Positions 5,799 to 56,324 of a stretch of DNA of 64,000 nt are shown here, piece after piece. Each line of letters starts with the position of its first letter. The stretch's first letter is position 1. The notes beneath the pieces were generated by a model that saw only the letters and a program-made list of their open reading frames with translations, did not search any database and had not been told where the DNA came from. The DNA comes from Escherichia phage vB_EcoM_SA20RB: the sequence record OL960581, one strand, 5' to 3'. A program made the translations under genes and the position numbers.

Positions 5799-5969
5799 TA
5801 CAATTTCCTCATTAATTAAACATTGGAGCGATGCGTTTCAGAAGAGTATCAGCACCTTTAGCGAATTTCCATTTTATTCTCCAAGTTGTTTTCTGTATCA
5901 GTAGTTGATATTGATATAGTACCATAATCAACTACTGATGTATATAGTTTTATGAAAAAATTTTAAACT

Positions 5970-6458
5970 TTATGCATAGAGAGCATTGCTATAGTGTTTA
6001 ATCCAACTTTCAGGAATGACTTTGTATGTTCCTAAAAATACCACATTGTACAGCTTAACACCATCTTCTACCCATTGATCGGTAATGTATCCACACATAG
6101 CACGAGTATAAACAACCCTTCCATCGTCTTTGATAAAGTTAAATTCACAAGGAGCAACGAACTTGATAGCTTGACCGAGTTTCCACTTAAAGTCTACGCC
6201 TACATGCGAAGTATCAATCGTTTCAATTCCTTTAGCAGGAACAGCTTTCAAAAACGCAGACTCAAGAAATTTCGCACGAACATAGCCAAACTGAGGTTTA
6301 GACTTTCCATCTTTAGGAATGATACGCACTTTTACTTCAGAATCTTCATCTTTAACACCGTGTTTAAGCTGAATGCTTACAATTTCAACCAATTTTCCTG
6401 CTGCTTTAGAGCGGGATTTATCAGATACACGAGCTAATTCACCAATATTAATAATCAT
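5970..6458 (-). CDS. motB: MotB-like protein (162 aa)
   Basis: 162-aa ORF with ATG start, downstream of early promoter 6503-6532; size and position match T4 motB. Confidence 0.55.
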   Translation of the reverse strand: MIINIGELARVSDKSRSKAAGKLVEIVSIQLKHGVKDEDSEVKVRIIPKDGKSKPQFGYVRAKFLESAFLKAVPAKGIETIDTSHVGVDFKWKLGQAIKFVAPCEFNFIKDDGRVVYTRAMCGYITDQWVEDGVKLYNVVFLGTYKVIPESWIKHYSNALYA

Positions 6459-6502
6459 AGTTATCTCTCACTTGTTAAAAAGATTTTATACTCCACAGGA
6501 CC

Positions 6503-6532
6503 ATTATACTCTGGTCCCAAGAGTTTGTAAAC
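6503..6532 (-). promoter_or_regulatory. T4-type early promoter
   Basis: plus attata 6503-6508 and gtaaac 6527-6532 (minus GTTTAC..TATAAT). Confidence 0.55.
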
Positions 6533-7079: not shown

Positions 7080-7583
7080 TTATCTCATTTCAATAAAATC
7101 TACAAGTTCAGCATGGGATTTGCGGAACATTACTTGATGTCCTCCAATGATAACTTGGTCATCTGGCACTTCGTATACAGCAAGATAAAATCCTTTAGAA
7201 GATAATTCTTCACGCTCTTCTCGGGTGAACCATCTCATCATATCATATTCACTAGCGAAAGCAAAATGATAAAGAGCTATAAACCATCCTGGAATATAGT
7301 GATCTACGCCTACATATTCCTCTTTCTCAAATTTAGTATTAATTGCTATATTAGCATTTTTAACTAATAATTTGTCTTCGCGCGGAAGAGGAATTCTTTT
7401 GTTATCATTACTATGATGCATAAAATTAGGTCTATCATAACCTACGTGTAATAACCACTCTTCGCTCCATGAATCTATTATACTCCTGTATGGCGTTATT
7501 TGAACACAAAGATTTCGACGTATTGTTATAGCATCTTCACAATTAAGAATACTAAAAGATGATTCAACACGATAAATTTTCAT
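7080..7583 (-). CDS. hypothetical protein (167 aa)
   Basis: in-frame ATG at 7581-7583 with GAGGA SD; track start is TTG inside promoter. Confidence 0.5.
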   Translation of the reverse strand: MKIYRVESSFSILNCEDAITIRRNLCVQITPYRSIIDSWSEEWLLHVGYDRPNFMHHSNDNKRIPLPREDKLLVKNANIAINTKFEKEEYVGVDHYIPGWFIALYHFAFASEYDMMRWFTREEREELSSKGFYLAVYEVPDDQVIIGGHQVMFRKSHAELVDFIEMR

Positions 7584-7610
7584 TTTATTATCCTCAGTAG
7601 CTATGATGTT

Positions 7611-7640
7611 ATAATACCACAACTAACCGAGGAAGTAAAC
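7611..7640 (-). promoter_or_regulatory. T4-type early promoter
   Basis: plus ataata 7611-7616, gtaaac 7635-7640. Confidence 0.55.
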
Positions 7641-17794: not shown

Positions 17795-17977
17795 TCATTC
17801 TTCTCCTCCTTCGTGTTGATGAACATATTCTTTTTCAAGTCTAGAGCACAAGTTTTCATATTCAACTAATAAAAATGAATCAAGTGCGTTATTTCTATGC
17901 TGACACCGTTCTTGTAAAGAATCCATCTCTGAACGTTGTTCTTGTGTTAATAATTGATAACCTGATACTTTAGACAT
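17795..17977 (-). CDS. hypothetical acidic protein (60 aa)
   Basis: ATG with GGAGAA SD; downstream of early promoter 18007-18036. Confidence 0.45.
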   Translation of the reverse strand: MSKVSGYQLLTQEQRSEMDSLQERCQHRNNALDSFLLVEYENLCSRLEKEYVHQHEGGEE

Positions 17978-18006
17978 TTTGTTCTCCGCGATTAGCTGAT
18001 AGAATT

Positions 18007-18036
18007 ACTATAACACAACTCTATCAGCTTGTAAAC
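18007..18036 (-). promoter_or_regulatory. T4-type early promoter
   Basis: plus actata 18007-18012, gtaaac 18031-18036. Confidence 0.55.
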
Positions 18037-18282: not shown

Positions 18283-18465
18283 TTATCCTCGGCAATCCAC
18301 TTCGCACACTTTCTTGTCATCAATGAAAGCTTTAACTAATGCTTTATTAACTTCAGCATATTGACTAGTAGCCCATTGAACGTCATCTTTCATCATTGTG
18401 ATTTCTTTAGTAAACATGCTTTCATTCTTAAACCACCCCATAAAAACTACCTTTACCAATTCCAT
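18283..18465 (-). CDS. dmd: Dmd antitoxin-like protein (60 aa)
   Basis: 60 aa MELVKVVFMGWFKNESMFTKEITMMKDDVQWATSQYAEVNKALVKAFIDDKKVCEVDCRG matches recalled T4 Dmd; GAGGAG SD; adjacent to gene 41. Confidence 0.6.
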   Translation of the reverse strand: MELVKVVFMGWFKNESMFTKEITMMKDDVQWATSQYAEVNKALVKAFIDDKKVCEVDCRG

Positions 18466-18494
18466 AACAATCTCCTCATTTAACCAACAAGACT

Positions 18495-18524
18495 ACTATA
18501 CCATAGTCTTGTCAGCTTGTAAAC
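18495..18524 (-). promoter_or_regulatory. T4-type early promoter
   Basis: plus actata 18495-18500, gtaaac 18519-18524; near-duplicate of promoter at 18007-18036. Confidence 0.55.
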
Positions 18525-23939: not shown

Positions 23940-24197
23940 TCAAATACAAGTAGTAATTACTCCAGTAGTGCTTACACAGGTATTACCTAATTGAACACCA
24001 AGCGTTCCATTAGTATTCATATGAAGATTATCATCAATTTTTGTTGATACTTTACCATTCATGTGAATAACAGTATTAGATTCAATCACATTCTGAGTGT
24101 CATTTTCAATATCAATAAATGGAACAGCTGCTAATGCAACTAGAACAACTGCTAATGCAACTAAACACGCTGCTAAACAACCATAAACAATTTTCAT
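23940..24197 (-). CDS. small membrane-anchored protein (85 aa)
   Basis: start moved to ATG 24195-24197 (GGAG SD) inside conserved promoter cassette; track ORF runs upstream through promoter and terminator. Confidence 0.45.
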   Translation of the reverse strand: MKIVYGCLAACLVALAVVLVALAAVPFIDIENDTQNVIESNTVIHMNGKVSTKIDDNLHMNTNGTLGVQLGNTCVSTTGVITTCI

Positions 24198-24240
24198 TTT
24201 ATTCTCCAAATCCGTATCAGTTGATAGTTGTATAGTACCA
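24191..24240 (-). repeat. 50-bp leader block (-10 region to ATG) of repeated early-promoter cassette, copy 1
   Basis: identical to 52652-52701. Confidence 0.7.
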
Positions 24241-24261
24241 TGGAAGAACAGAGATGTAAAC
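24232..24261 (-). promoter_or_regulatory. T4-type early promoter (cassette copy)
   Basis: plus atagta 24232-24237 (TACTAT -10), gtaaac 24256-24261. Confidence 0.5.
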
Positions 24262-24344
24262 CGTTTTGTGAAAAAATTTTTAATGAATTTACAGGACCTA
24301 GAATCATCTATTTTTCCTAAGTATAGATTTATATTACTTGTATG

Positions 24345-24365
24345 AAAAAGGGACCCGGAGGTCCC
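24345..24365 (-). terminator. rho-independent terminator after gene 43
   Basis: gggacc-cgga-ggtccc hairpin followed by U5 on minus strand. Confidence 0.6.
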
Positions 24366-24378
24366 TAGATTTATTCTA

Positions 24379-27075
24379 TCAGCCAAACAGGAAGTCTAAC
24401 GAAGCTTTTTCCTCATAGTCCATACCTGCCGATTCACACATACCCGCAAGTGGTTTAACAAACGATTTTTGGAACAAAGTTGAGTAGTCAATCCAAGACA
24501 GTACGTCAGAACGAATTTCTTTTGGAAGTTCTGTGCCTGATGGCCAAGCAATGCACTTGTCACCAAATGGATTTCCTTCACGTAATGGAAGAACCATTAC
24601 CTTATTTCCATCCAAAATTGGAGCTACACCTAAACCACTAACAGCTCGACGATAAGTTAGTACGCCACGAATATGGAACGGGCATTTAAATCCTGGCCAA
24701 CCTTTATCATCATATTTCGCTATATCGTTCGCAGTTTTTACTTCAGCAATAACTTTATAGTCAAGTTGACGATATTCTTTCTCAAAGTTCTTGTAGTATT
24801 CTTGGACAGACTCTTCACCTTCCTGAAGAATACGACGAATACTTTCTTCGAGAGCTTCTTGTACTGCTTTTGGTGTTGAACTCTGTTGAGTTTCCATACC
24901 CATAATTTTTAGATGCGGTTCGGCAAATCGCTTATCTTCCATATCATAAACGTTCAGAGCATAACGTTTTTTCGCTTTCCAAAATCCACCAACACCCTTT
25001 GAACCAAGCGGAGGGCAAGAAATAGCTTCACGGTCCATATGCATCAGATGCTCGCGGTTATTCATATAGTCACATAACTCACGATATGCAACATCAATCA
25101 TAGGTTCCATCTTTTTCTTACCAAACTGATTCATGAATTCAACTAAATCATTTTGTTCTTTAAAGCGATCAAGACCTACTTTTTCAATAACTTTATCTAC
25201 ACAAACATATACCGAATCAGTATCACCTGCTGCGATGAAATCTTCACCATTAGTTCCACATACTTTATTCAGATATTCATTAATTTTGCGAGCAATCCAC
25301 TGAATACCGACTTGACCGAAAATTGTGATAGCAGTAGCATTTCGCAAATCATAGTAACGGAAATGAATATTACCAAGAGCACCATAAAGACTGTTAATAA
25401 GAATTTTACGGTTCAGCTGATTTGTGTTAGCAAGTGTAGCTGCTTTTTCACATTCTTCGATCAGACTATTAAGAACAGATTCGGTGTAATTCGATAATTC
25501 GTTTAAGAAATCATCACTGAACTTAACATATCGTTCAACTTCTGGTTTAGTTGAACAAGACCCTGCACCTTTCATAATAATCTTTTTAATAGCTTCGGCA
25601 TTCATTTCTTCAGCGAACATTTTCTTTTTCCAATCTTTACGCTGGAAAAATACTTTAGCGATTTCCTTTGGAATGATACCTTCTTGGTGCTTATCATACA
25701 TCCATCCATTCGGAGAGCAAGAATATTCATCACTTGGCTTAGGAGCTGTTCCTGCGATATATTCATGAATTGGATGAACTTTAAACTGCCCACGAATAGT
25801 CTCAGGACTAATGTTAACCTGACGAATAATGCTAGGATACAGAGACGTCAAGTCAAAACTCATAATGTATCGACGAGCAATCGGTTTAGGTTCAAACACA
25901 AATGCACCTGGAAAACTCTGTTTAACGTGTGAACCTTGTTGAGGAATAACCTTATGTTCACCTTTCAGTGAGTTAAAAATAATAGCATCCCAAGTTTTAA
26001 TAGGACTCATTACACCAGAAAAAGGCATTTTAGCGTAATAAGACATACTTAAAACTAGATCGATAAACCCACGAATTTTATCAATTGCTTGAACTGATTC
26101 TACGTCAATGATGTTATAACTAATGTATCGTTGATGATTAGTCTCACGAAGTTTATTAATAGGACCATCGTACGGTAATTTACCTTTTTTGGTTTCATGT
26201 TGAGCAACTGATTCCAAAGAGAACGATGGCAAATTAGTAAATGCGAATTTCTTGTACAAATCTAAATAATCAAGAATAGATACGCCATCAATAGAATAAA
26301 TTTCTTTGCTACCGTACATATTTTGAATTAGTTTAGATTTTACCCGACCGATTGGAGAGAAGCGTTTCATACTGCGTTCACCGAGAACCATTTTAACACG
26401 GTTCATGATATACGGAACGTCAAATCCCTCAATATTCCAACCGGTAAAAATAGCAGGTCGTTTCTGTTCCCAGAGATTAATATATTCCATGAGCATATCA
26501 CGCTCATTATCAAATGGCATATAAATTACTCGGTCAAGAATTTCTTGAGGAACTTCATCACCACCTTCACAGTCAAGCTTAGCAGCTAACTTTGCATCCC
26601 ATTTTGATACTGAACCGTACATTGAATTCAACAAATCAAAGACGTAAAAACGATCGTCAATTGAATCATAATGAGTGATAGCATCAATTTCATATTCTGC
26701 TTTCATTGGGTCAGGAAATTTATCACCAGTAACCTCAATGTCACAGTTAGCTACACGAACAAATTTTCGGTCATAAACAATTTCTGAACCATATGTATCA
26801 CTGATATAAGCGAGTTTAAAATCGTTCATACCGAGAGCTTCGAGACCGATGTCTTCCATTCGCTTCATCCAGTCTCGTGCATCTTTCATTGATGGAAATT
26901 TTTGAGGAGCACAATTTTTACCATAAATGTCTTTGTATTTTGACTCTTCCTTACAATGCCTAAACATAGTCGGAAGATATTCTACTTCACGAGTACGTTC
27001 CTTTCCGTTTTCATCAATATAACGCTCAACAATATTATTTCCGACTGTTTCGATAGAGATATAAAATTCTTTCAT
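24379..27075 (-). CDS. 43: DNA polymerase gp43 (family B, 898 aa)
   Basis: 898 aa; exonuclease and polymerase motifs (YGDTDS); ATG start. Confidence 0.9.
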   Translation of the reverse strand: MKEFYISIETVGNNIVERYIDENGKERTREVEYLPTMFRHCKEESKYKDIYGKNCAPQKFPSMKDARDWMKRMEDIGLEALGMNDFKLAYISDTYGSEIVYDRKFVRVANCDIEVTGDKFPDPMKAEYEIDAITHYDSIDDRFYVFDLLNSMYGSVSKWDAKLAAKLDCEGGDEVPQEILDRVIYMPFDNERDMLMEYINLWEQKRPAIFTGWNIEGFDVPYIMNRVKMVLGERSMKRFSPIGRVKSKLIQNMYGSKEIYSIDGVSILDYLDLYKKFAFTNLPSFSLESVAQHETKKGKLPYDGPINKLRETNHQRYISYNIIDVESVQAIDKIRGFIDLVLSMSYYAKMPFSGVMSPIKTWDAIIFNSLKGEHKVIPQQGSHVKQSFPGAFVFEPKPIARRYIMSFDLTSLYPSIIRQVNISPETIRGQFKVHPIHEYIAGTAPKPSDEYSCSPNGWMYDKHQEGIIPKEIAKVFFQRKDWKKKMFAEEMNAEAIKKIIMKGAGSCSTKPEVERYVKFSDDFLNELSNYTESVLNSLIEECEKAATLANTNQLNRKILINSLYGALGNIHFRYYDLRNATAITIFGQVGIQWIARKINEYLNKVCGTNGEDFIAAGDTDSVYVCVDKVIEKVGLDRFKEQNDLVEFMNQFGKKKMEPMIDVAYRELCDYMNNREHLMHMDREAISCPPLGSKGVGGFWKAKKRYALNVYDMEDKRFAEPHLKIMGMETQQSSTPKAVQEALEESIRRILQEGEESVQEYYKNFEKEYRQLDYKVIAEVKTANDIAKYDDKGWPGFKCPFHIRGVLTYRRAVSGLGVAPILDGNKVMVLPLREGNPFGDKCIAWPSGTELPKEIRSDVLSWIDYSTLFQKSFVKPLAGMCESAGMDYEEKASLDFLFG

Positions 27076-29048: not shown

Positions 29049-29080
29049 AATTTCCTCATTCAAGTTTTAGTGTAAATTAT

Positions 29081-29098
29081 AAAGGGCCGAAGCCCTTT
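29081..29098 (-). other. UUCG-tetraloop stem-loop between genes 45 and 44
   Basis: aaagggc-cgaa-gcccttt. Confidence 0.5.
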
Positions 29099-29099
29099 A

Positions 29100-29786
29100 T
29101 TAAAAGTCGTGGGTAGAATCAGCTTCAAGAGCTACTACATAATTCGCATGTTCACCTTCAAATTTAGCAGCGCCTTGTTTACCTTTTGCCCAGAGCAGAA
29201 GTTTATAATTTCCTGGTTGCATTTTCATATTTGCCATATTGATAATGAAATTAAATGTATTTTCACCATCATAATCACCAAGAGTCAAAGAATATTTAAC
29301 ACGGGTCAAAGCAGAATCTTCTACTTTATTAAAACCGTTAATTACGATTTTACCTTCTTTTACTGTGATAGCAATTGTATCAATCTGCAGACCGCGAGAT
29401 ACACGCAACAGCTGTTGAAGGTCTTCAGCTTTAATTTCGGTAACAACAGATGCTACCGGGAATGGAATTGGTTTATTAGGAGCAACTACTGTACTCGGAT
29501 CGGCTGCTGGCCAAAAAATTGTTGAACGGGCATCAGCAATTTTAATATTTCCATCTTCTGACTGGGAAATTTCTGCATCATCATTAACTAGAGACAGAAT
29601 ACCGAGAAAACCGTTCAAATCGTAAATCGCTACATCAAAATCAATAGTGTCAGAAATATTTGCTTCCGCATAAGTTGTACCATTAACTGCGCGAGTCATA
29701 ATAAATTGACCAGATTTAAGCATAATACCAGAGTTAATAGTAGCGAAATTTTTGAGCAGAGCAGTAGTATCTTTAGACAGTTTCAT
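29100..29786 (-). CDS. 45: sliding clamp gp45 (228 aa)
   Basis: 228 aa, ATG start. Confidence 0.85.
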   Translation of the reverse strand: MKLSKDTTALLKNFATINSGIMLKSGQFIMTRAVNGTTYAEANISDTIDFDVAIYDLNGFLGILSLVNDDAEISQSEDGNIKIADARSTIFWPAADPSTVVAPNKPIPFPVASVVTEIKAEDLQQLLRVSRGLQIDTIAITVKEGKIVINGFNKVEDSALTRVKYSLTLGDYDGENTFNFIINMANMKMQPGNYKLLLWAKGKQGAAKFEGEHANYVVALEADSTHDF

Positions 29787-34231: not shown

Positions 34232-34392
34232 ATATCAAGAACCGTCATTGAAATGCAAAATAAAATTATTGAAATAAATCCATCTGGAGTGCTAAAGAAC
34301 CCAATCCAACACGCTCTAGTGAATAGATAAAATGCGAGAAAAAGTATCACATATCCAAGAAATATCATTATATCAAACTCCGTATAAAGCTA

Positions 34393-34410
34393 AAGGGCCG
34401 AAGCCCTTTA
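34393..34410 (-). other. UUCG-tetraloop stem-loop at a-gt 3' end
   Basis: aaagggc-cgaa-gcccttt, near-identical to 29081-29098. Confidence 0.5.
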
Positions 34411-35610
34411 TTTTGTAATAATGTCAAACTGTTCTTTAAAGCAGAAGCTTGAATCTTGATGCTGATACAAAAATTCATAAGCTTTTTCGCGTTCACGGTC
34501 ATAAAGAGCTCGGTCAGATGACAGTTCTTTAATACGTTCAAATGTTGATTCCATGTCATTTTCATCAAACCAAACGATACCGCTATCATGAGAAATTAAC
34601 GGAGTATTATCAACACGGAATTTTAAATTTTCGCCAGTAGATTTCCAAAATACTGGAATTGTTCCACATGCACCAAGCTCGAGATGAGTATATTCTAAAG
34701 AACGTTGTAGATATTTTTTGTCCAACTTACTCAGCTGATAACCAAATCCGGATTTACTCATGCGCTCAAGCATTTCGCTATTTACATAACGGTCAAGAAT
34801 TTGCGTTGGCAAATTAGGAGCAATTTTAATTTGGTCTACTTGATGAAGACGATAATACTCGTATGGAATTCCTTTTTCTTTAATAGGAATGAACGCAGGA
34901 GAACGTTCCAGACCTTCCATAATAGTACTTAGCCCAGCAGGTTTAAGATGTTTTTCGTGAAAATCAAACATCTGATAAAAACCTTTCCATGTAGTCGTAC
35001 GACCAATCCAACGGTTGACATTCATGTTAATTTCAGAAACATCTTTCCAGTAGGTTGATCGAACCTTCGCAATATCCATAGGAGGCTGAAAGTTGTATAC
35101 AGTCGGTGCTTCTTCAATATCATCAAACAGAGAAACTGTTTCTGGATACCATTCTTTCATCAAAACTTTATTAAAATCACCATTATCAGAATGACTAAAA
35201 ATAACATCAGCTCGACGAACAGTTTCTTCTAATCCCAAATTTCGGCGCAAAGAAAGAGAAGAATGGTCATGTTGATAAACTACAACACGAACTGAAGGTT
35301 TAATGTTATCAATAATTTTTTTATAGTTATTAATAGTGTCTTCTTCGACTGAAGTAGCAGGAACTGAATTGATAATTAGAATATCACAATCATTTACCAG
35401 CTTAAGTGTTTTATCGTATTCTTTTGCCAATAAAACCGGAATTGAAAATGATTTATAATCATGCGCGCAATTACGAGTAAATGATTTATCTTTAGCATAA
35501 ACCAAAGTTACTTCATGACCATTTTTAATAAACCAATCACGCTGCTCGAGAGAAAATTTAGTTACGCCGCAACCTTCAAGACCTCGAGCCATAAAAATAC
35601 ATACTTTCAT
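34408..35610 (-). CDS. a-gt: alpha-glucosyltransferase (400 aa)
   Basis: 400 aa as T4 a-gt; position between 47 and 55. Confidence 0.75.
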   Translation of the reverse strand: MKVCIFMARGLEGCGVTKFSLEQRDWFIKNGHEVTLVYAKDKSFTRNCAHDYKSFSIPVLLAKEYDKTLKLVNDCDILIINSVPATSVEEDTINNYKKIIDNIKPSVRVVVYQHDHSSLSLRRNLGLEETVRRADVIFSHSDNGDFNKVLMKEWYPETVSLFDDIEEAPTVYNFQPPMDIAKVRSTYWKDVSEINMNVNRWIGRTTTWKGFYQMFDFHEKHLKPAGLSTIMEGLERSPAFIPIKEKGIPYEYYRLHQVDQIKIAPNLPTQILDRYVNSEMLERMSKSGFGYQLSKLDKKYLQRSLEYTHLELGACGTIPVFWKSTGENLKFRVDNTPLISHDSGIVWFDENDMESTFERIKELSSDRALYDREREKAYEFLYQHQDSSFCFKEQFDIITK

Positions 35611-39650: not shown

Positions 39651-40121
39651 TTAATCATGTTTCCACACCCCATCGGTATTTGACCAAAGTCGCTGATTAT
39701 CTGATCCTCGCCACAGCTTTTTGGTAGGAAGATTTTTCTCATACTTCCCATCAATAATAACATCAACATATTTAAGCATTTCTAGTTGTTTAATATCTTC
39801 AAATTTATATCCTGTCCACAACCAAATGCTTTTATTGGAATAAAGATTTTTTACTGTTTGAACCACAGAGTGAATAACATCTCGGTTATCAGGATAGAGA
39901 GGGTCTCCTCCAGTTATAGTTAATCCTTCTATATAATCATTATTCAAACATTCAATTAATTGTTCTAGTGTTTCACCAGTGAATGGAACACCATTTCTAG
40001 CATTCCATGTTGATTTATTATAACACCCTTCGCATTTATGCAAACAACCTGTAACGAAAAGAACTGTCCTGCATCCAGGACCATTAACAAAGCAGCATGG
40101 GTATATTCTGTCATAATTCAT
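39651..40121 (-). CDS. nrdG: anaerobic ribonucleotide reductase activating protein NrdG (radical SAM, 156 aa)
   Basis: Cys cluster CLHKCEGC; 156 aa; ATG start. Confidence 0.8.
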   Translation of the reverse strand: MNYDRIYPCCFVNGPGCRTVLFVTGCLHKCEGCYNKSTWNARNGVPFTGETLEQLIECLNNDYIEGLTITGGDPLYPDNRDVIHSVVQTVKNLYSNKSIWLWTGYKFEDIKQLEMLKYVDVIIDGKYEKNLPTKKLWRGSDNQRLWSNTDGVWKHD

Positions 40122-40950
40122 TTATATATTTCCAATTATAGCCTTCAACACTTTTACGTTCGCCATTTAAACATTTTAAAATATTTCCTTTGCTAGAAAT
40201 ATTAAAATATTTTGCTGCGTCTGGTATATAATTAAATGTTTTTAAAAGAACACCATCTTTATATGCGCCAAATAAATTAAGAGTATATTTTTCTCGAAGA
40301 CGCTGATGTTTCCTTTTCATAACCTCAGGATTTGCATACGCCAACCTCAATGAATTTCTATGTTTTTCTTTTACTTCAGGTTTTTGCATTGCTAACTTAG
40401 TTAGCCTGGAAATTTTATTTCTAACTTCGTCAGTTTTCATTGCATTTGACAAATTTAATAAAGTTTTATTTCTAACTTCAGGTTTTTGCATTGCTAACTT
40501 AGTTAGTTCTCTATGTCTTTTTCTAAAATCGTCATCCTTCCATATATTTTTCGATAATTTTGACATAGAGCGGTGAAATAATTCCTTTTCACTGGAATAC
40601 AATTTAAAAATTTCATCCAATTCATCCGCATTAAATCTATCGGTATTCGAGTTTATCATTCTATGAAAGGCATAACACATTTTACTATTGCTTGTTTTAG
40701 CTAAATAGTAATGAGCTAACGCATGGTCATAATATGACAAATTAACAATATTCCATTTATCTGTTTTATATTCAGGAAATATAGATTTGGGAAGCACGTG
40801 ATGTGCTTCCGTTTTTCCTTTTATTTTAGGATTATTATAATTTTTTGTTATCAAATCAACATATGACAATAGTAAATCATTATTTTCTTCAAATATTAAA
40901 GCTAATTTATCATTCACAAAATCGCAAGGATAAAATCTATCGTAATTCAT
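40111..40950 (-). CDS. HNH homing endonuclease-like protein (mob-type, 279 aa)
   Basis: HNH motif AHHVLPKS..YYDHALAHYY; repeated KLAMQKPEV modules; ATGA overlap with nrdD stop. Confidence 0.6.
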   Translation of the reverse strand: MNYDRFYPCDFVNDKLALIFEENNDLLLSYVDLITKNYNNPKIKGKTEAHHVLPKSIFPEYKTDKWNIVNLSYYDHALAHYYLAKTSNSKMCYAFHRMINSNTDRFNADELDEIFKLYSSEKELFHRSMSKLSKNIWKDDDFRKRHRELTKLAMQKPEVRNKTLLNLSNAMKTDEVRNKISRLTKLAMQKPEVKEKHRNSLRLAYANPEVMKRKHQRLREKYTLNLFGAYKDGVLLKTFNYIPDAAKYFNISSKGNILKCLNGERKSVEGYNWKYINEL

Positions 40951-47240: not shown

Positions 47241-48242
47241 TTACTTAATTAACTGTAAAGCTTGTTCAAGACGATCCAGGCGATTAACAGATTCTTCCCA
47301 AATCCTTTTAGCCTGCTCATATTCTTTCTGCGCTTTATTAGAAATTTCTAGAGCTTCTTTATAAGCTTTTTCTAGTGCAATAACTTCTGGACGAATTTCT
47401 ACAGGTTCAGGCGAATCATCAAGATTATCCATTAGTTCCTCAAGTGTAATTTCTTCTTTAGGAGTATTCACAATTTCATCACATTTTTGTTGGTAAATTT
47501 CTTTATCAGTCGGTGAGTACGCACATTTCACTTCACGAAGACTAACTACAATTTTATATCCTTCCCAACCACACATATTTTTGAAAGGATATGTATGAAT
47601 ATTTTCTACTGTTTCCATACAAAGTAATGCGGTTTCTAATTGACGAGTTATAGTGCTAGCAATTGAGAAAAATTTATTAATGTTCTTTTGGTTAGTTTCT
47701 GGTGTAAAAAATCCATAATTCACAAAAATAGATACTTTATTTTTATCAAGTTCATATTCTTTTATGATAATCATATCAGAAGCCAAAGGATGAATTTGAC
47801 GATAATCGCCATAACATAATTTAGAAGCTGATTTTAGAAGTTGCTTCTTGAAAAGTCTGAAATTACTAATCCAACGACGAGTAAAAATATTCTCAGGGTC
47901 TTCTTTATTATTAAGATGATAAGAATTAACATCACCGAACCAATTATATCCTACTACATCTTTGGTTCGTTTAATTTCTTTCCCAAAATTACCAAGAATA
48001 TCCCGATTAACCAAATATGAAAGAAGACGAGACTCTTTAAAGGTTTTCTTGATAACATCTTTATCTACACGGCTAGAAATTTTACGAATTTCATGAATAA
48101 ATTTAACAGAAGAAACAATACTTGCGTCAACACTATTGAGCCATTGATTGATAATAGAAATAACGCTATTTTGACCAAACATCGGTATAGCTTTATCATC
48201 AATAACACTATTGAATGATTTGATATATTCGTTACGAGTCAT
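47241..48242 (-). CDS. hypothetical protein with C-terminal coiled coil (333 aa), paralog family member 2
   Basis: ATG 48240-48242 with GAGGAG SD (track start TTG 48293 lies in promoter). Confidence 0.55.
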   Translation of the reverse strand: MTRNEYIKSFNSVIDDKAIPMFGQNSVISIINQWLNSVDASIVSSVKFIHEIRKISSRVDKDVIKKTFKESRLLSYLVNRDILGNFGKEIKRTKDVVGYNWFGDVNSYHLNNKEDPENIFTRRWISNFRLFKKQLLKSASKLCYGDYRQIHPLASDMIIIKEYELDKNKVSIFVNYGFFTPETNQKNINKFFSIASTITRQLETALLCMETVENIHTYPFKNMCGWEGYKIVVSLREVKCAYSPTDKEIYQQKCDEIVNTPKEEITLEELMDNLDDSPEPVEIRPEVIALEKAYKEALEISNKAQKEYEQAKRIWEESVNRLDRLEQALQLIK

Positions 48243-48270
48243 ATTAATCTCCTCAGTAGAAAGTAAGAAC

Positions 48271-48300
48271 ATTATACCACATCCTTGTGGCAAAGTAAAC
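48271..48300 (-). promoter_or_regulatory. T4-type early promoter
   Basis: plus attata 48271-48276, gtaaac 48295-48300; near-identical to promoter at 2429-2458. Confidence 0.55.
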
Positions 48301-49328
48301 TAGTTCAGTGCATTTAGTGCATTGTTCAGTTTAGAACGTTGCTTCGTGAGATTTTTGACTTTTTCTTGAGCTTTTTCTAGCATCTTTTCAGCTTCTAACA
48401 CTTCATTAGTTGCTTTAACGAGTTCATCATCTACTGCCTTGATAGACTTCTCAATCGCATCCGCGTGCCATTTTTCAACAGGTTTAAGACTCGGATTTTC
48501 AACAGGAAGAAAATTCGCTTTATTGAATTTCCATGCATCCTTATTACCTGAACTATACATCCAAAATTTAGGATCGTTTGATGAGTAATTGGATAAATTT
48601 AAATTTAAGTTATCTTGCACTTCTTGCTTTTTCTCTTGCGTGACTTCGTCCTTTCTCAAAAAATCGTATTTAAATGAAATGATCATATCAAGTTCATATG
48701 TTGTTGTGTCTAATTTAAATCGTTCGAAATGCTGTGAAATCTTAGACTGAACAGCAGCAACAACGTCCATATACTTAAATGCTTCTGTCAACTGTGATTT
48801 AAGGCATTCGCAAATTGAAAGAGAATTTTTTGTATTAGGTTTAAAGCTAATTCGTGCAGTTCTGTTATTTTCTTTTAATGGTCTTACTTCCATCTGAAGA
48901 GTATAACCATCAAATTTCAGATTCTTTAAGTTAATATCAGAACCTTTTAATCGACTCGCAGTTGATAAAATTTGCTTTAATTGTCTACGGAACAGAGCAA
49001 TAAATCTCCATTCAATACGATAATGATTTGGATTGAAAAATCCAGATGATAAATCGACCTTACTTTGACCAACGCCTTGAACAAATAGAGGATTTTTATA
49101 ATCGATAGTTTTACAGAAATCGGTGAGCTGCTCACGAGCCGTCATTTGTGTAATATAACCCGCTTTACTAAAATTACGCACCCATTCACTGCTATTCGTA
49201 TACTTAAAGTGATGAATAACACGATTAACTTTATCAGGGTCTAAATTATTTTCACACAAAAATGTCATAACATCACGAGTATAACTGGCATTACGAACCA
49301 TATCTTCAATTTGAGAACGAGTTTTCAT
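48300..49328 (-). CDS. hypothetical protein with C-terminal coiled coil (342 aa), paralog family member 3
   Basis: ATG start; motif ..STASRLKG.. Confidence 0.55.
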   Translation of the reverse strand: MKTRSQIEDMVRNASYTRDVMTFLCENNLDPDKVNRVIHHFKYTNSSEWVRNFSKAGYITQMTAREQLTDFCKTIDYKNPLFVQGVGQSKVDLSSGFFNPNHYRIEWRFIALFRRQLKQILSTASRLKGSDINLKNLKFDGYTLQMEVRPLKENNRTARISFKPNTKNSLSICECLKSQLTEAFKYMDVVAAVQSKISQHFERFKLDTTTYELDMIISFKYDFLRKDEVTQEKKQEVQDNLNLNLSNYSSNDPKFWMYSSGNKDAWKFNKANFLPVENPSLKPVEKWHADAIEKSIKAVDDELVKATNEVLEAEKMLEKAQEKVKNLTKQRSKLNNALNALN

Positions 49329-50234: not shown

Positions 50235-50642
50235 TCACTCAATTTCAATTTTACTAAATACACAGAATATGATTGAACAGACTACATAAGCACCACACAC
50301 AGATTGAACTAATACCATCCCAAAGAACCAAACAATATTATCAAACAGTGTCTGTTTTACGTCGAAAGGACGTAAACTTACAGTAATATTATCACCTTTT
50401 TCTATTGAAGAATACATCTCTGGGGAAATATATTCACTAAATCTATAACCGTCTTTGAGTTCATATACGGCAATAAACGATAAACTAGACCCTTTTCCTT
50501 GTGTTCCTGTAATGGTATTAACTACAGTAACATCATAATCTTTATAATGCATATAATCATTAATTGCGTAATAACCATATGCAACTACTACACATAAACA
50601 ACATATCAATAAATTCAATCTTTTAATTATCAACTGTTTCAT
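50235..50642 (-). CDS. membrane protein (135 aa)
   Basis: N- and C-terminal hydrophobic helices. Confidence 0.5.
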   Translation of the reverse strand: MKQLIIKRLNLLICCLCVVVAYGYYAINDYMHYKDYDVTVVNTITGTQGKGSSLSFIAVYELKDGYRFSEYISPEMYSSIEKGDNITVSLRPFDVKQTLFDNIVWFFGMVLVQSVCGAYVVCSIIFCVFSKIEIE

Positions 50643-50697
50643 AATAATCTCAATTAAAAGGGCTTAGAACCATTATACCATCCTTGGTATAAAGCGG

Positions 50698-51225
50698 TTA
50701 TGCGAGTACCGTCTTTAACCGTTCTTCAAACTTCCGAAGAGTATTTTGGCGTTCAGCTCTTTGCTTTTTGTAAGTTTCAATACGCTCTGAAATGAGAGTG
50801 TATCGTTCATTTACTGATTCTTTCATAAAATCAGGAATTTCACGAGAAGCTTTAATCTCGTCAAATTTATCAATAACAGCTTGCTCTTCAGCAATTAAGT
50901 TATCATACATTAAAATATCTTTCTTGATGAACTCAATATCTTCTTGAGTTACACGAGATAATTTAGATGCTTTATCCTTTTTGTACTGTTCGTTAGTATC
51001 ACGAGACCAGTGCAATGTACGATTTTTATTCGTATTTTTGTAAATTTCTACAATACCGATCTCATCAATAATAACGATCCAATTCCAACGGGATTTGTAA
51101 ATTTGTCCTCCATCAACAGTGATTTCACCTCCGATTGAGATGTCGTTAAAGAACTTGCTTTGTGCTTCAGATTTAAATTTACCATCGTTGTAATTTACCA
51201 AGTTGAAAATATCTTTAGCGTTCAT
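50698..51225 (-). CDS. hypothetical protein (175 aa)
   Basis: ATG start downstream of promoter 51255-51283. Confidence 0.5.
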   Translation of the reverse strand: MNAKDIFNLVNYNDGKFKSEAQSKFFNDISIGGEITVDGGQIYKSRWNWIVIIDEIGIVEIYKNTNKNRTLHWSRDTNEQYKKDKASKLSRVTQEDIEFIKKDILMYDNLIAEEQAVIDKFDEIKASREIPDFMKESVNERYTLISERIETYKKQRAERQNTLRKFEERLKTVLA

Positions 51226-51254
51226 TTTGTGTTCCTCCGTAGTTGATAGTTGTA

Positions 51255-51283
51255 TAGTACCACAGAGGAACAGTCTTGTAAAC
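51255..51283 (-). promoter_or_regulatory. T4-type early promoter (cassette family)
   Basis: plus atagta 51255-51260, gtaaac 51278-51283. Confidence 0.5.
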
Positions 51284-51285
51284 CA

Positions 51286-51600
51286 CTAAAAGAAACTTCT
51301 TTCACAATTTTTTCCACTGAACCAGGCGCTCACTGCTTTCTTAGTCTCAGGAGCAGTGTTATCCATAAACCATTCAAAGGCAGCCTTTTTATGATTCTGG
51401 AGGGCTTCTCGGGCTTTAATCTGCTCACGGTCTATTAACACTAACATATGAGCCTTTCTTGTCACCATGGGCTTCTTATGATTTTTTGAATACTCCCAGT
51501 CATTTGTCCATCGCATTGTCGTTGCGAACTGAAATACTGCTTCTTTAATTTTAGTTTCGTAAATTTCACGAGCCTTTGAGTATAACATCATTACCTCCAT
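51286..51600 (-). CDS. hypothetical protein (104 aa)
   Basis: ATG start. Confidence 0.45.
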   Translation of the reverse strand: MEVMMLYSKAREIYETKIKEAVFQFATTMRWTNDWEYSKNHKKPMVTRKAHMLVLIDREQIKAREALQNHKKAAFEWFMDNTAPETKKAVSAWFSGKNCERSFF

Positions 51601-51689
51601 TCACCAGTTTAATTCTAGTCATCTTTTTAATGGCAGTCCATATAATCTATTTCTGAACTGCCTTTTTGTCATAGAAGTCCTCTTATGAA

Positions 51690-52658
51690 TTATTTCAGAA
51701 GAGTAACCTCAGCAATTTCTTCCCAACCGTTTTTGTCGGTCATAATAAAGTCAGCAAGATAAAGAGCAGTACGCAGTGAAACATTGCGTAAACGGTTAAC
51801 ATTAACTTTCATCCATGATAATGCTTTATAAGTTTCTTCATCAGAAAGACCGCGCTTTTGCATCATGTCAGTTGAAAGAATAACATCTTCAACCCTGACC
51901 ATAATTTCTTCATTAGTATGAACACCCAAATCCAAATAAACCGAGCGGGACACTAATGCTTGTAAATGTGGAGCAAGTTTAGTACCACGGTCTAATTCGC
52001 GGTCAATGTCAACGTTTGTGATAAAAACAATCGTTCCTTTAAATTCAAACTCACGCTCAATGCCTTTTTCTTCTAAGTAAGAAGACGCAGTGCTCCAGCA
52101 GACTTTACGGGTCTCTCCGGTGTCCAGAGCGGCTTTTAGAAGATTAAGAATGTCCATATCAGAGAAAACATCCACATCATCAATCAAAAGGACAGAATTC
52201 TCTTCACGATTATTCCAAAGCTGCTCATAAAGACCAATACCAGAGATTTTACCATTAATGCTTTTATATTCAATGTATCCAATATCATTTGCTTTATTTA
52301 AAGCTTTATCTAAAGAATACGTTTTACCAATACCTGCTGCACCAGAGATAATCAATGAACGAATATTTCCATTAATAATACCATTCGTCATCATTCCCAT
52401 AACATTAAATCTTTTATTAATGCGGGTTTTCATATCTTCATACGATTCTTTAACTTCTTCAACCTTTACACCATCATATGAAATATCTGATTTGTAAACC
52501 CAAACACCGCGACGTTTACCGTCAATTTCAACAAAAACTTTACCATCTCCTTGTGCATCTACCGGAGCATTATCTGGGAACCATTCGCCTAAGAGCTCAA
52601 AAGTTCCAGAGATTTCTTTACCGAAGTAGATACCCTTATTGATAGTTACAGTTTTCAT
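51690..52658 (-). CDS. P-loop ATPase (AAA+-like, 322 aa)
   Basis: Walker A SGAAGIGKT, Walker B VLLIDDVD; ATG 52656-52658 inside conserved promoter-leader cassette. Confidence 0.6.
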   Translation of the reverse strand: MKTVTINKGIYFGKEISGTFELLGEWFPDNAPVDAQGDGKVFVEIDGKRRGVWVYKSDISYDGVKVEEVKESYEDMKTRINKRFNVMGMMTNGIINGNIRSLIISGAAGIGKTYSLDKALNKANDIGYIEYKSINGKISGIGLYEQLWNNREENSVLLIDDVDVFSDMDILNLLKAALDTGETRKVCWSTASSYLEEKGIEREFEFKGTIVFITNVDIDRELDRGTKLAPHLQALVSRSVYLDLGVHTNEEIMVRVEDVILSTDMMQKRGLSDEETYKALSWMKVNVNRLRNVSLRTALYLADFIMTDKNGWEEIAEVTLLK

Positions 52659-52701
52659 TTTATTCTCCAAATCCGTATCAGTTGATAGTTGTATAGTACC
52701 A
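52652..52701 (-). repeat. 50-bp leader block of repeated early-promoter cassette, copy 2
   Basis: identical to 24191-24240. Confidence 0.7.
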
Positions 52702-52722
52702 TAAAGCTTTATGCTTGTAAAC
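52694..52722 (-). promoter_or_regulatory. T4-type early promoter (cassette copy)
   Basis: plus atagta 52694-52699, gtaaac 52717-52722. Confidence 0.5.
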
Positions 52723-52745
52723 CGTTTTGTGAAAAAATTTTGAAA

Positions 52746-52770
52746 TAAAAAAGGGAGCCCGAAGGCTCCC
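52746..52770 (-). terminator. rho-independent terminator (UUCG hairpin + U6)
   Basis: gggagcc-cgaa-ggctccc with plus aaaaaa 52746-52751. Confidence 0.65.
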
Positions 52771-52772
52771 TA

Positions 52773-53783
52773 TCATTTATAATAACTTCGGTGGTTTTCA
52801 AGATAAACCCTCTCAAGGAAGTCATCCCAGAAACCCATGTCTACTTTTTGTTGCATACCGTTCTTAGAAGCTTCAATAGATGCTGCTTCTACTTGATCGA
52901 CCACATCTTCCAAAAACTCTTGAACAGTTTTAAATGGATGTTTACCAAGCTTCACGTCGAGAATAAATGGAGCGTCTTGGAGTGGATAGACTAAGTCACC
53001 AGTTTTGTAAATTTCCAATAGTTGGAGTCCACCACGACAAGCATGACTCAGAGCTTTCCAGTCAATACCCTCATTCGCTTCAGCCTTACGAGCACGTTCA
53101 CCATATTCAGCATCAAGTTTATTCAAAGACTGCTTAAGCTCAATAAGAGAAAGAGTTGTCTGATATTTACGACCCAACACAGTGTAGAACGTTTGTGGGC
53201 CTGTTTTCTCATGATTATGGAATACCCATTCACAGAATTCGTTCTCTGGAAGACGATGCTTAATATCTTCAACTTTAGTTCGACGCTGCTTAATGGAACC
53301 GTCTTCTTGGTAATCAACCCATTGCTCAGGGATTTGATTAACTACTTTCAATACATCACGCAATGCGGCCAAACGAGAACCCTTGACACCATATTTAGAA
53401 GCTTGCTTGCGGACATATCCTAAATAAGATTTCATGTTAGTTGTATAAAAACGAGAACGATTGTCTTGAATAAACTTCCACACATCAGGTAAATCAGATT
53501 TAACCACTAGTTCAGGTGGAGTGTGAAGCATATCTAATGCTACGGTTTCACCATCTGCTGCTAATTTAAAGAAATATTTAAGACTGTATAGTTCATGGTC
53601 AATATCATCTTTAGTGTTTTTAGATGATGTGTTGTTGGTATTTTTACTCATATGCTCTTTAACATTTCCGATAAGAATATCACGAGCAGGAGGAACAAAG
53701 ATTTCTTTAAAATCTACATCAGATTCTGGGGTAGAAGTTCCATAAAGATGACTACCAAAATAACTTTTCATTACTGTTTTCAT
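52773..53783 (-). CDS. putative nucleotidyltransferase (Pol-beta superfamily fold, 336 aa)
   Basis: N-terminal GSHLYGTSTPESDVDF matches minimal NTase motif GS-x(9-13)-D-h-D/E-h. Confidence 0.5.
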   Translation of the reverse strand: MKTVMKSYFGSHLYGTSTPESDVDFKEIFVPPARDILIGNVKEHMSKNTNNTSSKNTKDDIDHELYSLKYFFKLAADGETVALDMLHTPPELVVKSDLPDVWKFIQDNRSRFYTTNMKSYLGYVRKQASKYGVKGSRLAALRDVLKVVNQIPEQWVDYQEDGSIKQRRTKVEDIKHRLPENEFCEWVFHNHEKTGPQTFYTVLGRKYQTTLSLIELKQSLNKLDAEYGERARKAEANEGIDWKALSHACRGGLQLLEIYKTGDLVYPLQDAPFILDVKLGKHPFKTVQEFLEDVVDQVEAASIEASKNGMQQKVDMGFWDDFLERVYLENHRSYYK

Positions 53784-54226
53784 TTAACATCCTTAAATTC
53801 TATCATAGGGCAGATTTTAGATTTACTAGCTTTAAGGTATTCAACGATTACACTATTAGGATGTTCAATACCGTTTTCTTCGTCTTGTTGACGCTTCCAC
53901 GCTCTATCATACCTGACTCCTTCCCATAAACCTGAAATCTTAGCTACAATATATGCTATACCTACTGCAATAACGACAATCGTAGCAAATATCAGTACAC
54001 CAAATACGGTTCCGCCTGCGTGTAGAAGCCAGAATCCTGTAACACCAAATTGACTTAAAATAGCTTGTCCTACCACCCAACTACCTAATAGCCCCGATGT
54101 GCAAATAACACCGATAACTAAGAACGTCCACGCCATTTTCCAGAAATATTTACACAAAGAATTCGGACGCTGCCAGTAAAAGAAATCATGCATACGAACG
54201 TGCCAAGAGTTTTCATTAATAATCAT
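53780..54226 (-). CDS. integral membrane protein (148 aa)
   Basis: three or more hydrophobic helices. Confidence 0.5.
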   Translation of the reverse strand: MIINENSWHVRMHDFFYWQRPNSLCKYFWKMAWTFLVIGVICTSGLLGSWVVGQAILSQFGVTGFWLLHAGGTVFGVLIFATIVVIAVGIAYIVAKISGLWEGVRYDRAWKRQQDEENGIEHPNSVIVEYLKASKSKICPMIEFKDVK

Positions 54227-54228
54227 AA

Positions 54229-54750
54229 TTATCCTTTCATTGAAGGTGTAACAGTTGTTAAATACTTAATCATAGCTTCAGCTTCTGATTTTGATAATGA
54301 AATTTCTCCATTGTTTTGACGAATAGAAATAAAATCCGGATGACGGTCACCACCAGCTTTTAAAATACACATATAAGTATCAGTTTCATCTTCAATATCT
54401 GAAATGATTGAAGCAGTTCCGCATGAATGCGGTTTTTGATAAATCAATGCAGCTTTTCTTCCACCGTTTGACTGTTCATAAACTTTTAACACATCAAACA
54501 AATCACTTCTTTTATCAATAGCTAAGATGTTGTTTTCATCTTCAATGTTAAATCCTTCGGATACTTCATAAAGTGTCACCCATAAATCACCTATATCGAT
54601 AGTAGCATTTCCTTTTCCACGACTTTCAAGAGTATGACAAATTTTCTTGATTTCGTCATAACTCATTTTAATAATATCATCTCCTTGAATAAGGAAGATG
54701 TCATTTTTAAATTCAACACGAATTAAACCGCTTTCACTTGAAATAAACAT
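54229..54750 (-). CDS. hypothetical protein (173 aa), paralog of 54757..55314
   Basis: C-terminus SKSEAEAMIKYLTTVTPSMKG parallels TKDEAIALKTYLDSVIPTMISK. Confidence 0.5.
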   Translation of the reverse strand: MFISSESGLIRVEFKNDIFLIQGDDIIKMSYDEIKKICHTLESRGKGNATIDIGDLWVTLYEVSEGFNIEDENNILAIDKRSDLFDVLKVYEQSNGGRKAALIYQKPHSCGTASIISDIEDETDTYMCILKAGGDRHPDFISIRQNNGEISLSKSEAEAMIKYLTTVTPSMKG

Positions 54751-54756
54751 ATTTCC

Positions 54757-55314
54757 TCACTTTGAAATCATAGTTGGAATGACAGAATCAAGATAAGTCT
54801 TTAGCGCAATGGCTTCGTCTTTGGTAAATGTGACAATATGTGATCGAAAATCATCAATTTGACGAATAGTTAAGACATCTCCCTCTTCATAACATTTTGA
54901 TACATTTAAAAGAGTTTCATCATTCTGATTGCAATCGTTAGTAATAATAGCATTGCAATTTTTGAGCCATTTTAAACTATGTTTTCTTTCATTAGAATAA
55001 TAAAAATATTTAATCTTAGCTATAAAACTATCCCAATGAATAACTGATAAACACATTGACTCACTTTTAATATTAAATCCTGGGCATGAAGAATAAAAAT
55101 GAATTTTGTGCTCATCATTGATGCTTACTATTTTATCAGTATAAGGATATTCAATTTGGGTTAAATGAATGATTTCACTAGGCGTAAAATACAGCATATC
55201 GTCTTCTTGCGTCAAACGATACATGTTATTTACTTTTTCTATAGCCAATTCACCAAAAAGCGGACTAACTTCTAATACTAATCGTTTCATATTGATTCTC
55301 TTCGACTCATTCAC
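54757..55314 (-). CDS. hypothetical protein (185 aa; GTG start or ATG at 55290)
   Basis: GTG 55314 preceded by AGGAG SD. Confidence 0.45.
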   Translation of the reverse strand: MNESKRINMKRLVLEVSPLFGELAIEKVNNMYRLTQEDDMLYFTPSEIIHLTQIEYPYTDKIVSINDEHKIHFYSSCPGFNIKSESMCLSVIHWDSFIAKIKYFYYSNERKHSLKWLKNCNAIITNDCNQNDETLLNVSKCYEEGDVLTIRQIDDFRSHIVTFTKDEAIALKTYLDSVIPTMISK

Positions 55315-55316
55315 AA

Positions 55317-55421
55317 TTACATACTCCTTTGAATAATATCAATAATGTTGTTCACCAGATTATAAGTAAACATCGGGTGATAATATTGAATCATCACATA
55401 CACAACAAACAAAACTTTCAT
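55317..55421 (-). CDS. possible hydrophobic micropeptide (34 aa)
   Basis: ATG 55419-55421 preceded by AAGGAG SD; hand-translated MKVLFVVYVMIQYYHPMFTYNLVNNIIDIIQRSM. Confidence 0.3.
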   Translation of the reverse strand: MKVLFVVYVMIQYYHPMFTYNLVNNIIDIIQRSM

Positions 55422-55449
55422 TCTCTTCTCCTTGGCAGTTGACAAGATT

Positions 55450-55479: not shown

Positions 55480-55481
55480 CA

Positions 55482-55637: not shown

Positions 55638-55644
55638 CTGCTTT

Positions 55645-56045: not shown

Positions 56046-56233
56046 TATTCCACCACATATGAAAGAGAGAATATTGCACACGCCATATGAGTTGCAGCTT
56101 CATCACACATATCATAACGTTTCTTAAGAAGTTTTTCAAGTTCTTCACTGGTAACTTCATCCATGTTGACGAAAAAATCACCATTAATGATGACGTAGAT
56201 ATTTCCTTCTTGATTAAGTGCTTCAATTTTCAT
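56045..56233 (-). CDS. hypothetical protein (62 aa)
   Basis: ATG 56231-56233 with AGAGGAG SD inside promoter-leader cassette (track start TTG 56278). Confidence 0.45.
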
Positions 56234-56261
56234 GATGTTCTCCTCTTTATCTGATGGTTGT

Positions 56262-56291
56262 ATAGTATCACAGCTCAAATGGAAAGTAAAC
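56262..56291 (-). promoter_or_regulatory. T4-type early promoter (cassette family)
   Basis: plus atagta 56262-56267, gtaaac 56286-56291. Confidence 0.5.
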
Positions 56292-56301
56292 CGGTAAAAT
56301 G

Positions 56302-56324
56302 AAAAAAGTCTCCCGAAGGAGACT
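56302..56324 (-). terminator. rho-independent terminator (UUCG hairpin + U-run)
   Basis: agtctcc-cgaa-ggagact with plus aaaaa 56302-56306. Confidence 0.6.

Follow-up and report, generated by a model that had tools for sequence, protein, structure and literature searches.

Repeated promoter and leader cassettes of T4-type phages have been described most fully as PeSLs. In RB49 and phi1, Arbiol et al. (2010) defined a PeSL as an AT-rich region with -35 and -10 boxes, a stem-loop that may occupy any of five positions, and a Shine-Dalgarno sequence with its start codon, and hairpins overlapping the -10 box were among the forms described (PMC2839356). These PeSLs had both promoter and terminator activity and were associated with mini-circles, detected by PCR or Southern blot, and recombination between cassettes was proposed as the cause of ORF insertions and deletions (PMC2839356). 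In the T-even pair PST/T4, Comeau et al. (2014) recognized PeSLs as well and gave their consensus as TTTACW N17 TAYWAT (PMC4122927). The early promoters of T4 follow an 'UP/-35/TGn/-10' design with extra consensus regions and outcompete host promoters right after infection (PMC2988021). Two modes of control of T4 messages also bear on the present locus, namely translational control by a promoter lying inside a hairpin, known for genes e, soc, 49 and I-TevI, and cleavage at strong RegB/S1 sites with the consensus GG*AGRAYARAA (PMC3014915).

Here we examined a 64,000-nt stretch of Escherichia phage vB_EcoM_SA20RB (the window), of which the 5 kb around one cassette (cassette A) and the 7.5 kb around another (cassette B) share 97-98.6% identity with many Tequatrovirus (T4-like) genomes. 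Comparison with annotated relatives and with T4 assigned the early genes to the minus strand. Gene 43 and a small ORF (ORF85) flank cassette A, and ORF85 is followed in order by imm.1, imm and gene 42; T4 lacks ORF85, its cassette A leader being joined to imm.1 instead. Cassettes B, C and D lie 5' of nrdC.10, nrdC.8 and mobD.5 in the variable nrdC-mobD-rI-tk region, within the nrdC.11-mobD.5 hyperplastic region. The first-pass annotation had described these blocks as recurring upstream of unrelated genes, and the ORF85, NrdC.10, NrdC.8 and MobD.5 proteins indeed have no significant mutual similarity. A 37-aa ORF (24194-24307, minus strand) runs across cassette A and is annotated as a hypothetical protein in the close relative ESh26; it is almost certainly a spurious call over regulatory DNA, and short ORFs called across early cassettes are probably spurious more generally. 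Feature coordinates are collected in Table 1.

Table 1. Positions of cassette parts, hairpins and neighbouring genes in the window
Feature	Position	Strand	Detail
Gene 43 (DNA polymerase)	24379-27075	minus	comparison with relatives
Cassette A, terminator-like hairpin 3' of gene 43	24349..24366	minus	GGGACC-UCCG-GGUCCC plus U run; -13.9 kcal/mol, z = -3.2
Cassette A, A/T-rich UP element and -35	24255..24283	minus	GTTTAC 24256-24261; sequence identity to B
Cassette A, locus-specific part of -35/-10 spacer	24242..24254	minus	2/13 positions shared with B spacer
Cassette A, TGG-extended -10, start region and unstructured leader	24195..24241	minus	TACTAT 24232-24237; inside 51-nt block
Cassette A, Shine-Dalgarno and start codon	24197-24207; 24195-24197	minus	GGAGAATAAAA; ATG
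ORF85	23940..24197	minus	small protein with hydrophobic N-terminus, behind cassette A
Cassette B, 5' of nrdC.10	52656..52744	minus	UP element; -35 GTTTAC 52717-52722; locus-specific spacer
Cassette B, -10 to start codon	52693-52698; 52658-52668; 52656-52658	minus	TGG and -10 TACTAT; leader; GGAGAATAAAA; ATG
Cassette B, UUCG-loop terminator hairpin 3' of nrdC.11	52752..52771	minus	-16.5 kcal/mol, z = -3.9
Cassette C, 5' of nrdC.8	51223..51283	minus	-35 51278-51283; -10 51254-51259; ATG 51223-51225
Cassette C (nrdC.8) hairpin	51259-51272 pairs with 51230-51243	minus	14 bp; -20.2 kcal/mol, z = -5.1
Cassette D, 5' of mobD.5	56231..56324	minus	-35 56286-56291; TGA and -10 TACTAT 56262-56267; ATG 56231-56233
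Cassette D, UUCG hairpin	56307-56324	minus	terminator scan
Degenerate fifth cassette	5871..5967	minus	UP intact; -35 mutated to TATATAC; TGG TACTAT and long leader with GGAGAATAAAA kept
RegB consensus matches	24197-24207, 52658-52668, 5872-5882, 17977-17987	minus	GGAGRAYARAA
regB promoter hairpin	60431-60490	minus	-22.4 kcal/mol, z = -5.8; Shine-Dalgarno in 3' arm
Promoter hairpin	7581-7640	minus	Shine-Dalgarno in 3' arm
Other promoters with -10 in hairpin loop	55419-55479, 18463-18524, 17975-18036, 6456-6532, 63103-63189	minus	RNA fold

Evaluating the cassettes against the early promoters around them, we found 18 minus-strand sites before genes in the window that fit GTTTAC-N18-TAnnnT, all 18 of them with exactly 18 nt between GTTTAC and the -10 box. 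A consensus for T4 early promoters and ribosome-binding sites was reportedly compiled by Liebig and Rueger in 1989, and the four cassettes resemble canonical T4 early promoters in their GTTTAC -35, TGn-extended -10, UP element, extra conserved positions and early-gene location. They differ in carrying TACTAT-ACAAC(T/C)ATC where TATAAT or TATAGT is commoner, and in that two of them share an entire leader. The distance from GTTTAC to the ATG is mostly 58-62 nt, is 67 nt for A and B, and reaches 87 nt elsewhere. Compared pairwise over a fixed 96-nt frame, the 18 promoters have a mean identity of 43%. The expectation that the repeated blocks would be closer to one another than to other promoters held clearly for A and B (82/96 positions) but only marginally for the remaining pairs within the family, which matched at 50-57 positions, other pairs among the 18 promoters averaging 40.6 +/- 5.1 and reaching 55 at most. 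C and D exceed the background similarity of early promoters by only about 2-3 SD, and part of what unites the 'family' is therefore no more than the strong consensus of T4 early promoters.

Exact repeats of at least 20 nt in the window are nearly all promoters or terminators, so that regulatory sequences are the main dispersed homology open to phage recombination. A second promoter sub-family is formed by two early promoters 45.8 kb apart (2401-2460 and 48240-48302, minus strand), which are identical at 31 of 32 positions across the -35, spacer and -10 (GTTTACTTTRCCACAAGGATGTGGTATAAT) and whose spacer holds a CCACA/TGTGG mini-hairpin. A repeat of another kind occurs in a 279-aa ORF (40111-40950, minus strand) with His-rich motifs that resemble those of an HNH-type homing endonuclease; its internal repeat of about 34 aa (...LTKLAMQKPEV...) corresponds to a 32-nt exact DNA repeat 102 nt apart (40363-40404 and 40465-40506).

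Read along the minus strand, cassette A consists of A/T-rich AAAATTTTTTCACAAAACG, GTTTAC, 18 nt ending in TGG, TACTAT, ACAACTATCAACTGATACGGATTT, GGAGAATAAA and ATG. The identity with cassette B that had been given as 50 bp extends in fact over 51 nt (24191-24241 = 52652-52702, exact), a block that comprises TGG, the -10 TACTAT, the leader, GGAG and ATGAAAA on the minus strand. A second exact match of 26 bp lies upstream as claimed (24255-24280 = 52716-52741) and holds the UP element and GTTTAC, and the 13 nt between the two identical blocks agree at only 2 positions, which bears out the description of a variable spacer. This 51-mer is the longest exact direct repeat of the 64-kb window, compared with a mean longest repeat of 16.7 nt and a maximum of 20 in 30 first-order Markov simulations. 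T4 has the orthologous imm.1/nrdC.10 cassette pair, with leaders that differ by a 3-nt indel and one substitution, so the repeat is old and shared beyond this phage. The presence of the pair in T4 and all examined relatives rules out a recent duplication confined to the present genome, and the occurrence of the same cassettes in hundreds of independent genomes rules out an assembly artefact. Our cassette search returned 547 phage records, typically with 8 places per record among the records listed. As A and B are direct repeats around roughly 28 kb with essential replication genes, a crossover between them within one genome would be lethal, and their identity must come from conversion or from exchange between genomes.

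These comparisons bear on the reading that the similarity is purely functional, each promoter and leader having converged on, or been held at, an optimum with no recombination between copies. In favour of this reading, all 18 early promoters share GTTTAC, the 18-nt spacing, TGn, TAnnnT and a GGAG-type Shine-Dalgarno, T4 early promoters have extra consensus regions (PMC2988021), and C and D rise barely above background. However, the 51 identical bases cover leader positions that vary freely in other early promoters, and an unrelated spacer between two identical blocks fits patchwork exchange rather than uniform constraint. Together with the variants of leader and spacer in relatives that are described below, this makes functional constraint by itself a highly improbable account.

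Turning to the leader that A and B share, we found no stable structure when it was folded (-0.7 kcal/mol, z = +0.3 against shuffled controls), nor did the whole A, B and D cassettes show structure beyond shuffled controls. Its 3' part (GGAGAAUAAAA / GGAGAATAAAA) fits GGAGRAYARAA perfectly and is unpaired within the translation initiation region. This pattern has four sites in the window against 0.43 expected, each of them a Shine-Dalgarno directly before a start codon, while cassettes C and D fit only the GGAG part. In having the unpaired consensus GGAGAAUAAAA at an early-gene initiation region the leader resembles in sequence the RegB/S1 target sites of T4 early mRNAs (PMC3014915). We infer that these are strong early promoters whose mRNAs RegB would rapidly inactivate. 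A different role for the leader, as a structured cis-regulatory RNA or sRNA such as a riboswitch or repressor operator, is suggested by its 35 nt being conserved base for base before unrelated genes, which is unusual for a simple ribosome-binding site, and ACAACUAUCAACUGAUACGGAUUU would then be the candidate partner-bound sequence. That role strikes us as scarcely credible, given the lack of a stable fold in the leader and of any Rfam match to it at E <= 1, and given that the RegB/S1 consensus already accounts for the conserved 3' part. The Rfam search itself covered 50500-57000 and returned only three sub-threshold chance matches, with no family on the leader.

Stem-loops accompany all four cassettes (z <= -3.2 in 4/4), lying upstream in A, B and D and at the -10 box in C. 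Most copies had been placed immediately after a UUCG-hairpin terminator of the preceding gene, a description that suits B and D, where the UUCG hairpins lie 15-29 nt upstream of the -35, but not A, where the loop is UCCG and the hairpin sits 82 nt upstream of the -35, nor C, where the terminator scan found no upstream terminator hairpin and the UP element lies inside the nrdC.9 coding sequence. Elsewhere in the window, near-identical hairpins resembling terminators form a family (plus-strand sequence AAAGGGCCGAAGCCCTTT, giving a UUCG loop on the minus strand) with members at 29080-29101 and 34391-34412 and also at 4327, 27133 and 38030; two of its copies are identical over 22 nt, which adds another dispersed regulatory homology.

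Cassettes C and D share the core TGGTACTATACAAC(T/C)ATC with A and B, and the upstream half of D resembles the promoter at 14720. Allowing at most 2 mismatches, the 18-mer TGGTACTATACAACYATC has four sites in the window, against 0.00 expected, and none elsewhere in it (24223, 51245 and 52684 exact; 56253 with one mismatch). The diverged copies that the first-pass annotation had placed at 51225-51283 and 56231-56291 do span start codon to -35 correctly, but their similarity is marginal outside the -10/start block. That annotation also overlooked a fifth, degenerate member of the family at 5871-5967, which is followed only by ATGGAAATTCGCTAA, a 4-codon ORF remnant, and this suggests that the gene once driven by the fifth cassette has since been deleted. 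T4 itself has orthologous promoters 5' of imm.1, nrdC.10, nrdC.8 and mobD.5. A scan of metagenomes with the 14-mer TGGTACTATACAAC gave 120 unrelated chance matches, the pattern being too short for that collection.

To see what the cassettes border in relatives, we compared the gene 43/imm.1 locus (locus A) across a panel of about 17 genomes and contigs out of about 550 Tequatrovirus genomes. The proposed check of flanking gene content was positive, with three gene contents at this locus and a 722-nt insertion at the nrdC.10 cassette (locus B). T4 and RB10 have no extra ORF, the leader running directly onto imm.1; the window, wV7, Sf21, UTI-E4 and PhiZZ23 have an ORF of 85 or 78 aa (ORF85/78) between leader and imm.1; and T2 and RB27 have an unrelated ORF of 83 aa (ORF83). 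Overall, ORF85/78 was present in 325 records (tblastn) and ORF83 in 31. The ORF83 state goes with the nrdC.8-type leader (ACAACTATCAACTACGGAGGAACACAAAATG) and not with the nrdC.10-type one, and the ORF85/ORF83 replacement is bounded by the -10 block and by the imm.1 Shine-Dalgarno/ATG. Where ORF85 is missing as in T4, the junction is a 9-10-nt direct repeat, ATGAAAAT(T/C)G, present at both start codons and outside the promoter, so short-homology deletion contributes independently of the cassette.

Alleles of the cassette parts are also re-sorted at this locus. Spacers there are of two types (...TTCTTCCATGG and ...TTCCTCTGTGG), as are leaders (L1 and L2), and all four combinations occur: A-spacer with L1 in T4, A-spacer with L2 in RB27, C-spacer with L2 in T2 and C-spacer with L1 in UTI-E4. 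This four-gamete pattern points to crossovers inside the shared 22-nt -10/start block TGGTACTATACAACTATCAACT. The leader allele caactactgatacagatttggagaataaaatg, with an ACT insertion and ACAG, occurs in wV7 at locus A and in RB27 at locus B; at locus A of the window the leader is the allele usual at locus B, and the spacer there is identical to that of an e.8-type cassette (gene start MDNYGEL) in another genome. Such sharing of spacers and leaders across loci makes cassette A a mosaic at a scale of 20-30 nt. That leader indel and point variants are common to different loci, and that one locus holds four spacer/leader combinations, argues further against purely functional similarity.

At locus B, one genome (IMG/VR 3300045988_128797, L026 1560-2400) carries the 722-nt module, which lies between CTATCAA (just past the -10) and the Shine-Dalgarno of nrdC.10 and brings with it a new leader, three small ORFs and a second promoter of the hairpin type. 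A second genome (IMG/VR 2974787500, L033) has the same insertion in degraded form, with the UP element and -35 lost. The full module was found in 9 phage records and its halves apart in others, so the sub-modules shuffle independently. A DUF4031 domain-containing protein is annotated in the region of this module in the related record IME537.

The insertion is circularly permuted (leader, ORFs, promoter) with CTATCAA at both ends, as might be expected if the cassettes were true mobile elements, a structure- or sequence-specific system excising mini-circles of cassette plus ORF and integrating them at other cassettes in an integron-like manner. Mini-circles have been seen experimentally for the RB49/phi1 PeSLs (PMC2839356), and many promoters of the clade have hairpins centred on the -10. 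Yet no recombinase is implicated, the junctions lie at the -10 block, the Shine-Dalgarno/ATG and the UP region, as fits homology-driven exchange and not a fixed site, and the most similar pair, A and B, has no promoter hairpin; the PeSL authors themselves leave the question open (PMC2839356). We regard a dedicated mobile system as improbable here. Since junctions occur at several places, no recombinase is implicated and the A/B repeats flank essential genes, we favour the view that exchange at the cassettes is incidental, a consequence of general homologous and short-homology recombination working on regulatory sequence that is reused.

Folding the region from -35 to ATG as RNA revealed that 8 of the 18 early promoters lie within a strong hairpin with the -10 hexamer in its loop (-13 to -22 kcal/mol, z -2.1 to -5.8). 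In cassette C the 5' arm of the helix is the spacer, the loop is the -10, and the 3' arm holds the GGAGG Shine-Dalgarno; a GGAG Shine-Dalgarno lies in the 3' arm of three of the eight hairpins, those of the regB, 7640 and nrdC.8 promoters. In relatives, paralogous promoters retain the pairing despite quite different arm sequences. RNA started at the internal promoter does not include the 5' arm, so the helix can exist only in read-through RNA. The cassette C, regB and 7640 promoters resemble T4 genes e, soc, 49 and I-TevI in that the Shine-Dalgarno pairs with sequence upstream of the -10. They differ in that the internal promoter is early here, whereas late or middle promoters there delay expression; cassettes A, B and D, also in contrast to those genes, have no such helix. 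We found no description of a Shine-Dalgarno-sequestering hairpin at early promoters in the literature examined.

Should such helices form in RNA reading through from upstream, they would block its translation and probably also its cleavage by RegB. Taken further, the -35/-10 spacer would be a hairpin arm by which early genes are translated and exposed to RegB only from transcripts of their own promoter ('transcript-origin' insulation), an idea that we offer tentatively and think rather unlikely as a whole. Were it true, recombination in the shared loop would re-sort the arms and so break or create control, as at locus A. There the helix is intact in T2, has wobble pairs in RB27 (-13.9 kcal/mol) and is broken in the window and UTI-E4, and the window's spacer resembles the 5' arm of the nrdC.8-type hairpin. 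To judge by its bases, that spacer is what is left of the 5' arm of a -10 helix, an nrdC.10-type leader having entered by recombination in the window as in UTI-E4. In a stronger version, hairpins extruded in the DNA may be cut preferentially, for example by endonuclease VII, and thereby seed exchanges.

Set beside the published PeSLs, the composite anatomy of the cassettes fits the PST/T4 description, and the defining features that concern sequence are all present. The promoters read TTTACA-N17-TACTAT, with TG at -15/-14 in A, B and C and, at the same spacing, TGA in place of TGG in D. An A/T-rich tract precedes GTTTAC (AAAATTTTTTCACAAAACG in A and B, comparable tracts in C and D); a hairpin lies upstream in A, B and D and straddles the -10 in C; and GGAG or GGAGG stands 6-8 nt before the ATG of ORF85, nrdC.10, nrdC.8 and mobD.5. 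The cassettes are repeated in the hyperplastic region, and related genomes hold as many as 8 exact copies of the 18-mer; one IMG/VR genome has 8 such copies before different genes. Junctions between gene contents fall at them, as seen in the locus A replacements with their four-gamete pattern and in the locus B insertion with its degraded copy. As with PeSLs, then, the cassettes recur through early and hyperplastic regions, beside small variable ORFs and at indel or replacement junctions between close relatives. The PeSL-type reading with gene shuffling is supported by this comparative evidence, and it is already published and ordinary for the phage group.

Three points are added to the PeSL description here. 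The crossovers lie inside the -10/start block, whereas the 2010 paper suggested the AT-rich region (PMC2839356); leader alleles move between loci 28 kb apart; and hairpins straddling the -10 are common in a T-even genome, whereas the 2014 paper puts the PST stem-loops upstream of the promoter (PMC4122927).

Taken together, we consider it very probable that the blocks are one paralogous sub-family of T4-type early promoter and leader cassettes that also act as points of crossover and gene conversion. Each cassette would be a very strong host sigma-70 promoter (UP element, GTTTAC, exactly 18 nt, TGn-extended TACTAT and a conserved start region) that runs into a short leader with a RegB-type GGAG Shine-Dalgarno and the start codon directly after it. 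An upstream terminator hairpin would insulate the cassette from the preceding gene in three of the four copies. The cassettes would fire at once after infection, and the consensus predicts that RegB/S1 cleavage in GGAGAAUAAAA would afterwards inactivate their mRNAs. As 50-100-nt patches of dispersed near-identity in a phage that recombines heavily, they would also serve as crossover and gene-conversion points, and the relatives show exchanges in the -10/start block and at the Shine-Dalgarno/ATG edge by which downstream ORFs were replaced, inserted or deleted and leader alleles were moved between loci.

This arrangement recalls Botstein linkers, integron cassettes and morons, in all of which short conserved regulatory sequences flank exchangeable modules with their own expression signals. 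It differs from integron cassettes in having no integrase or attC-type site, exchange apparently being homology-driven, and from morons in that recombination acts on the flanking regulatory sequence itself. The gene 43/imm.1 locus provides a clean worked example in which the crossover interval is narrowed to the 22-nt -10/start block. For the T4-like phages, reused promoter and leader cassettes offer a simple account, along lines already published, of how small accessory genes can enter, leave or replace one another while expression of the neighbouring genes is left undisturbed.
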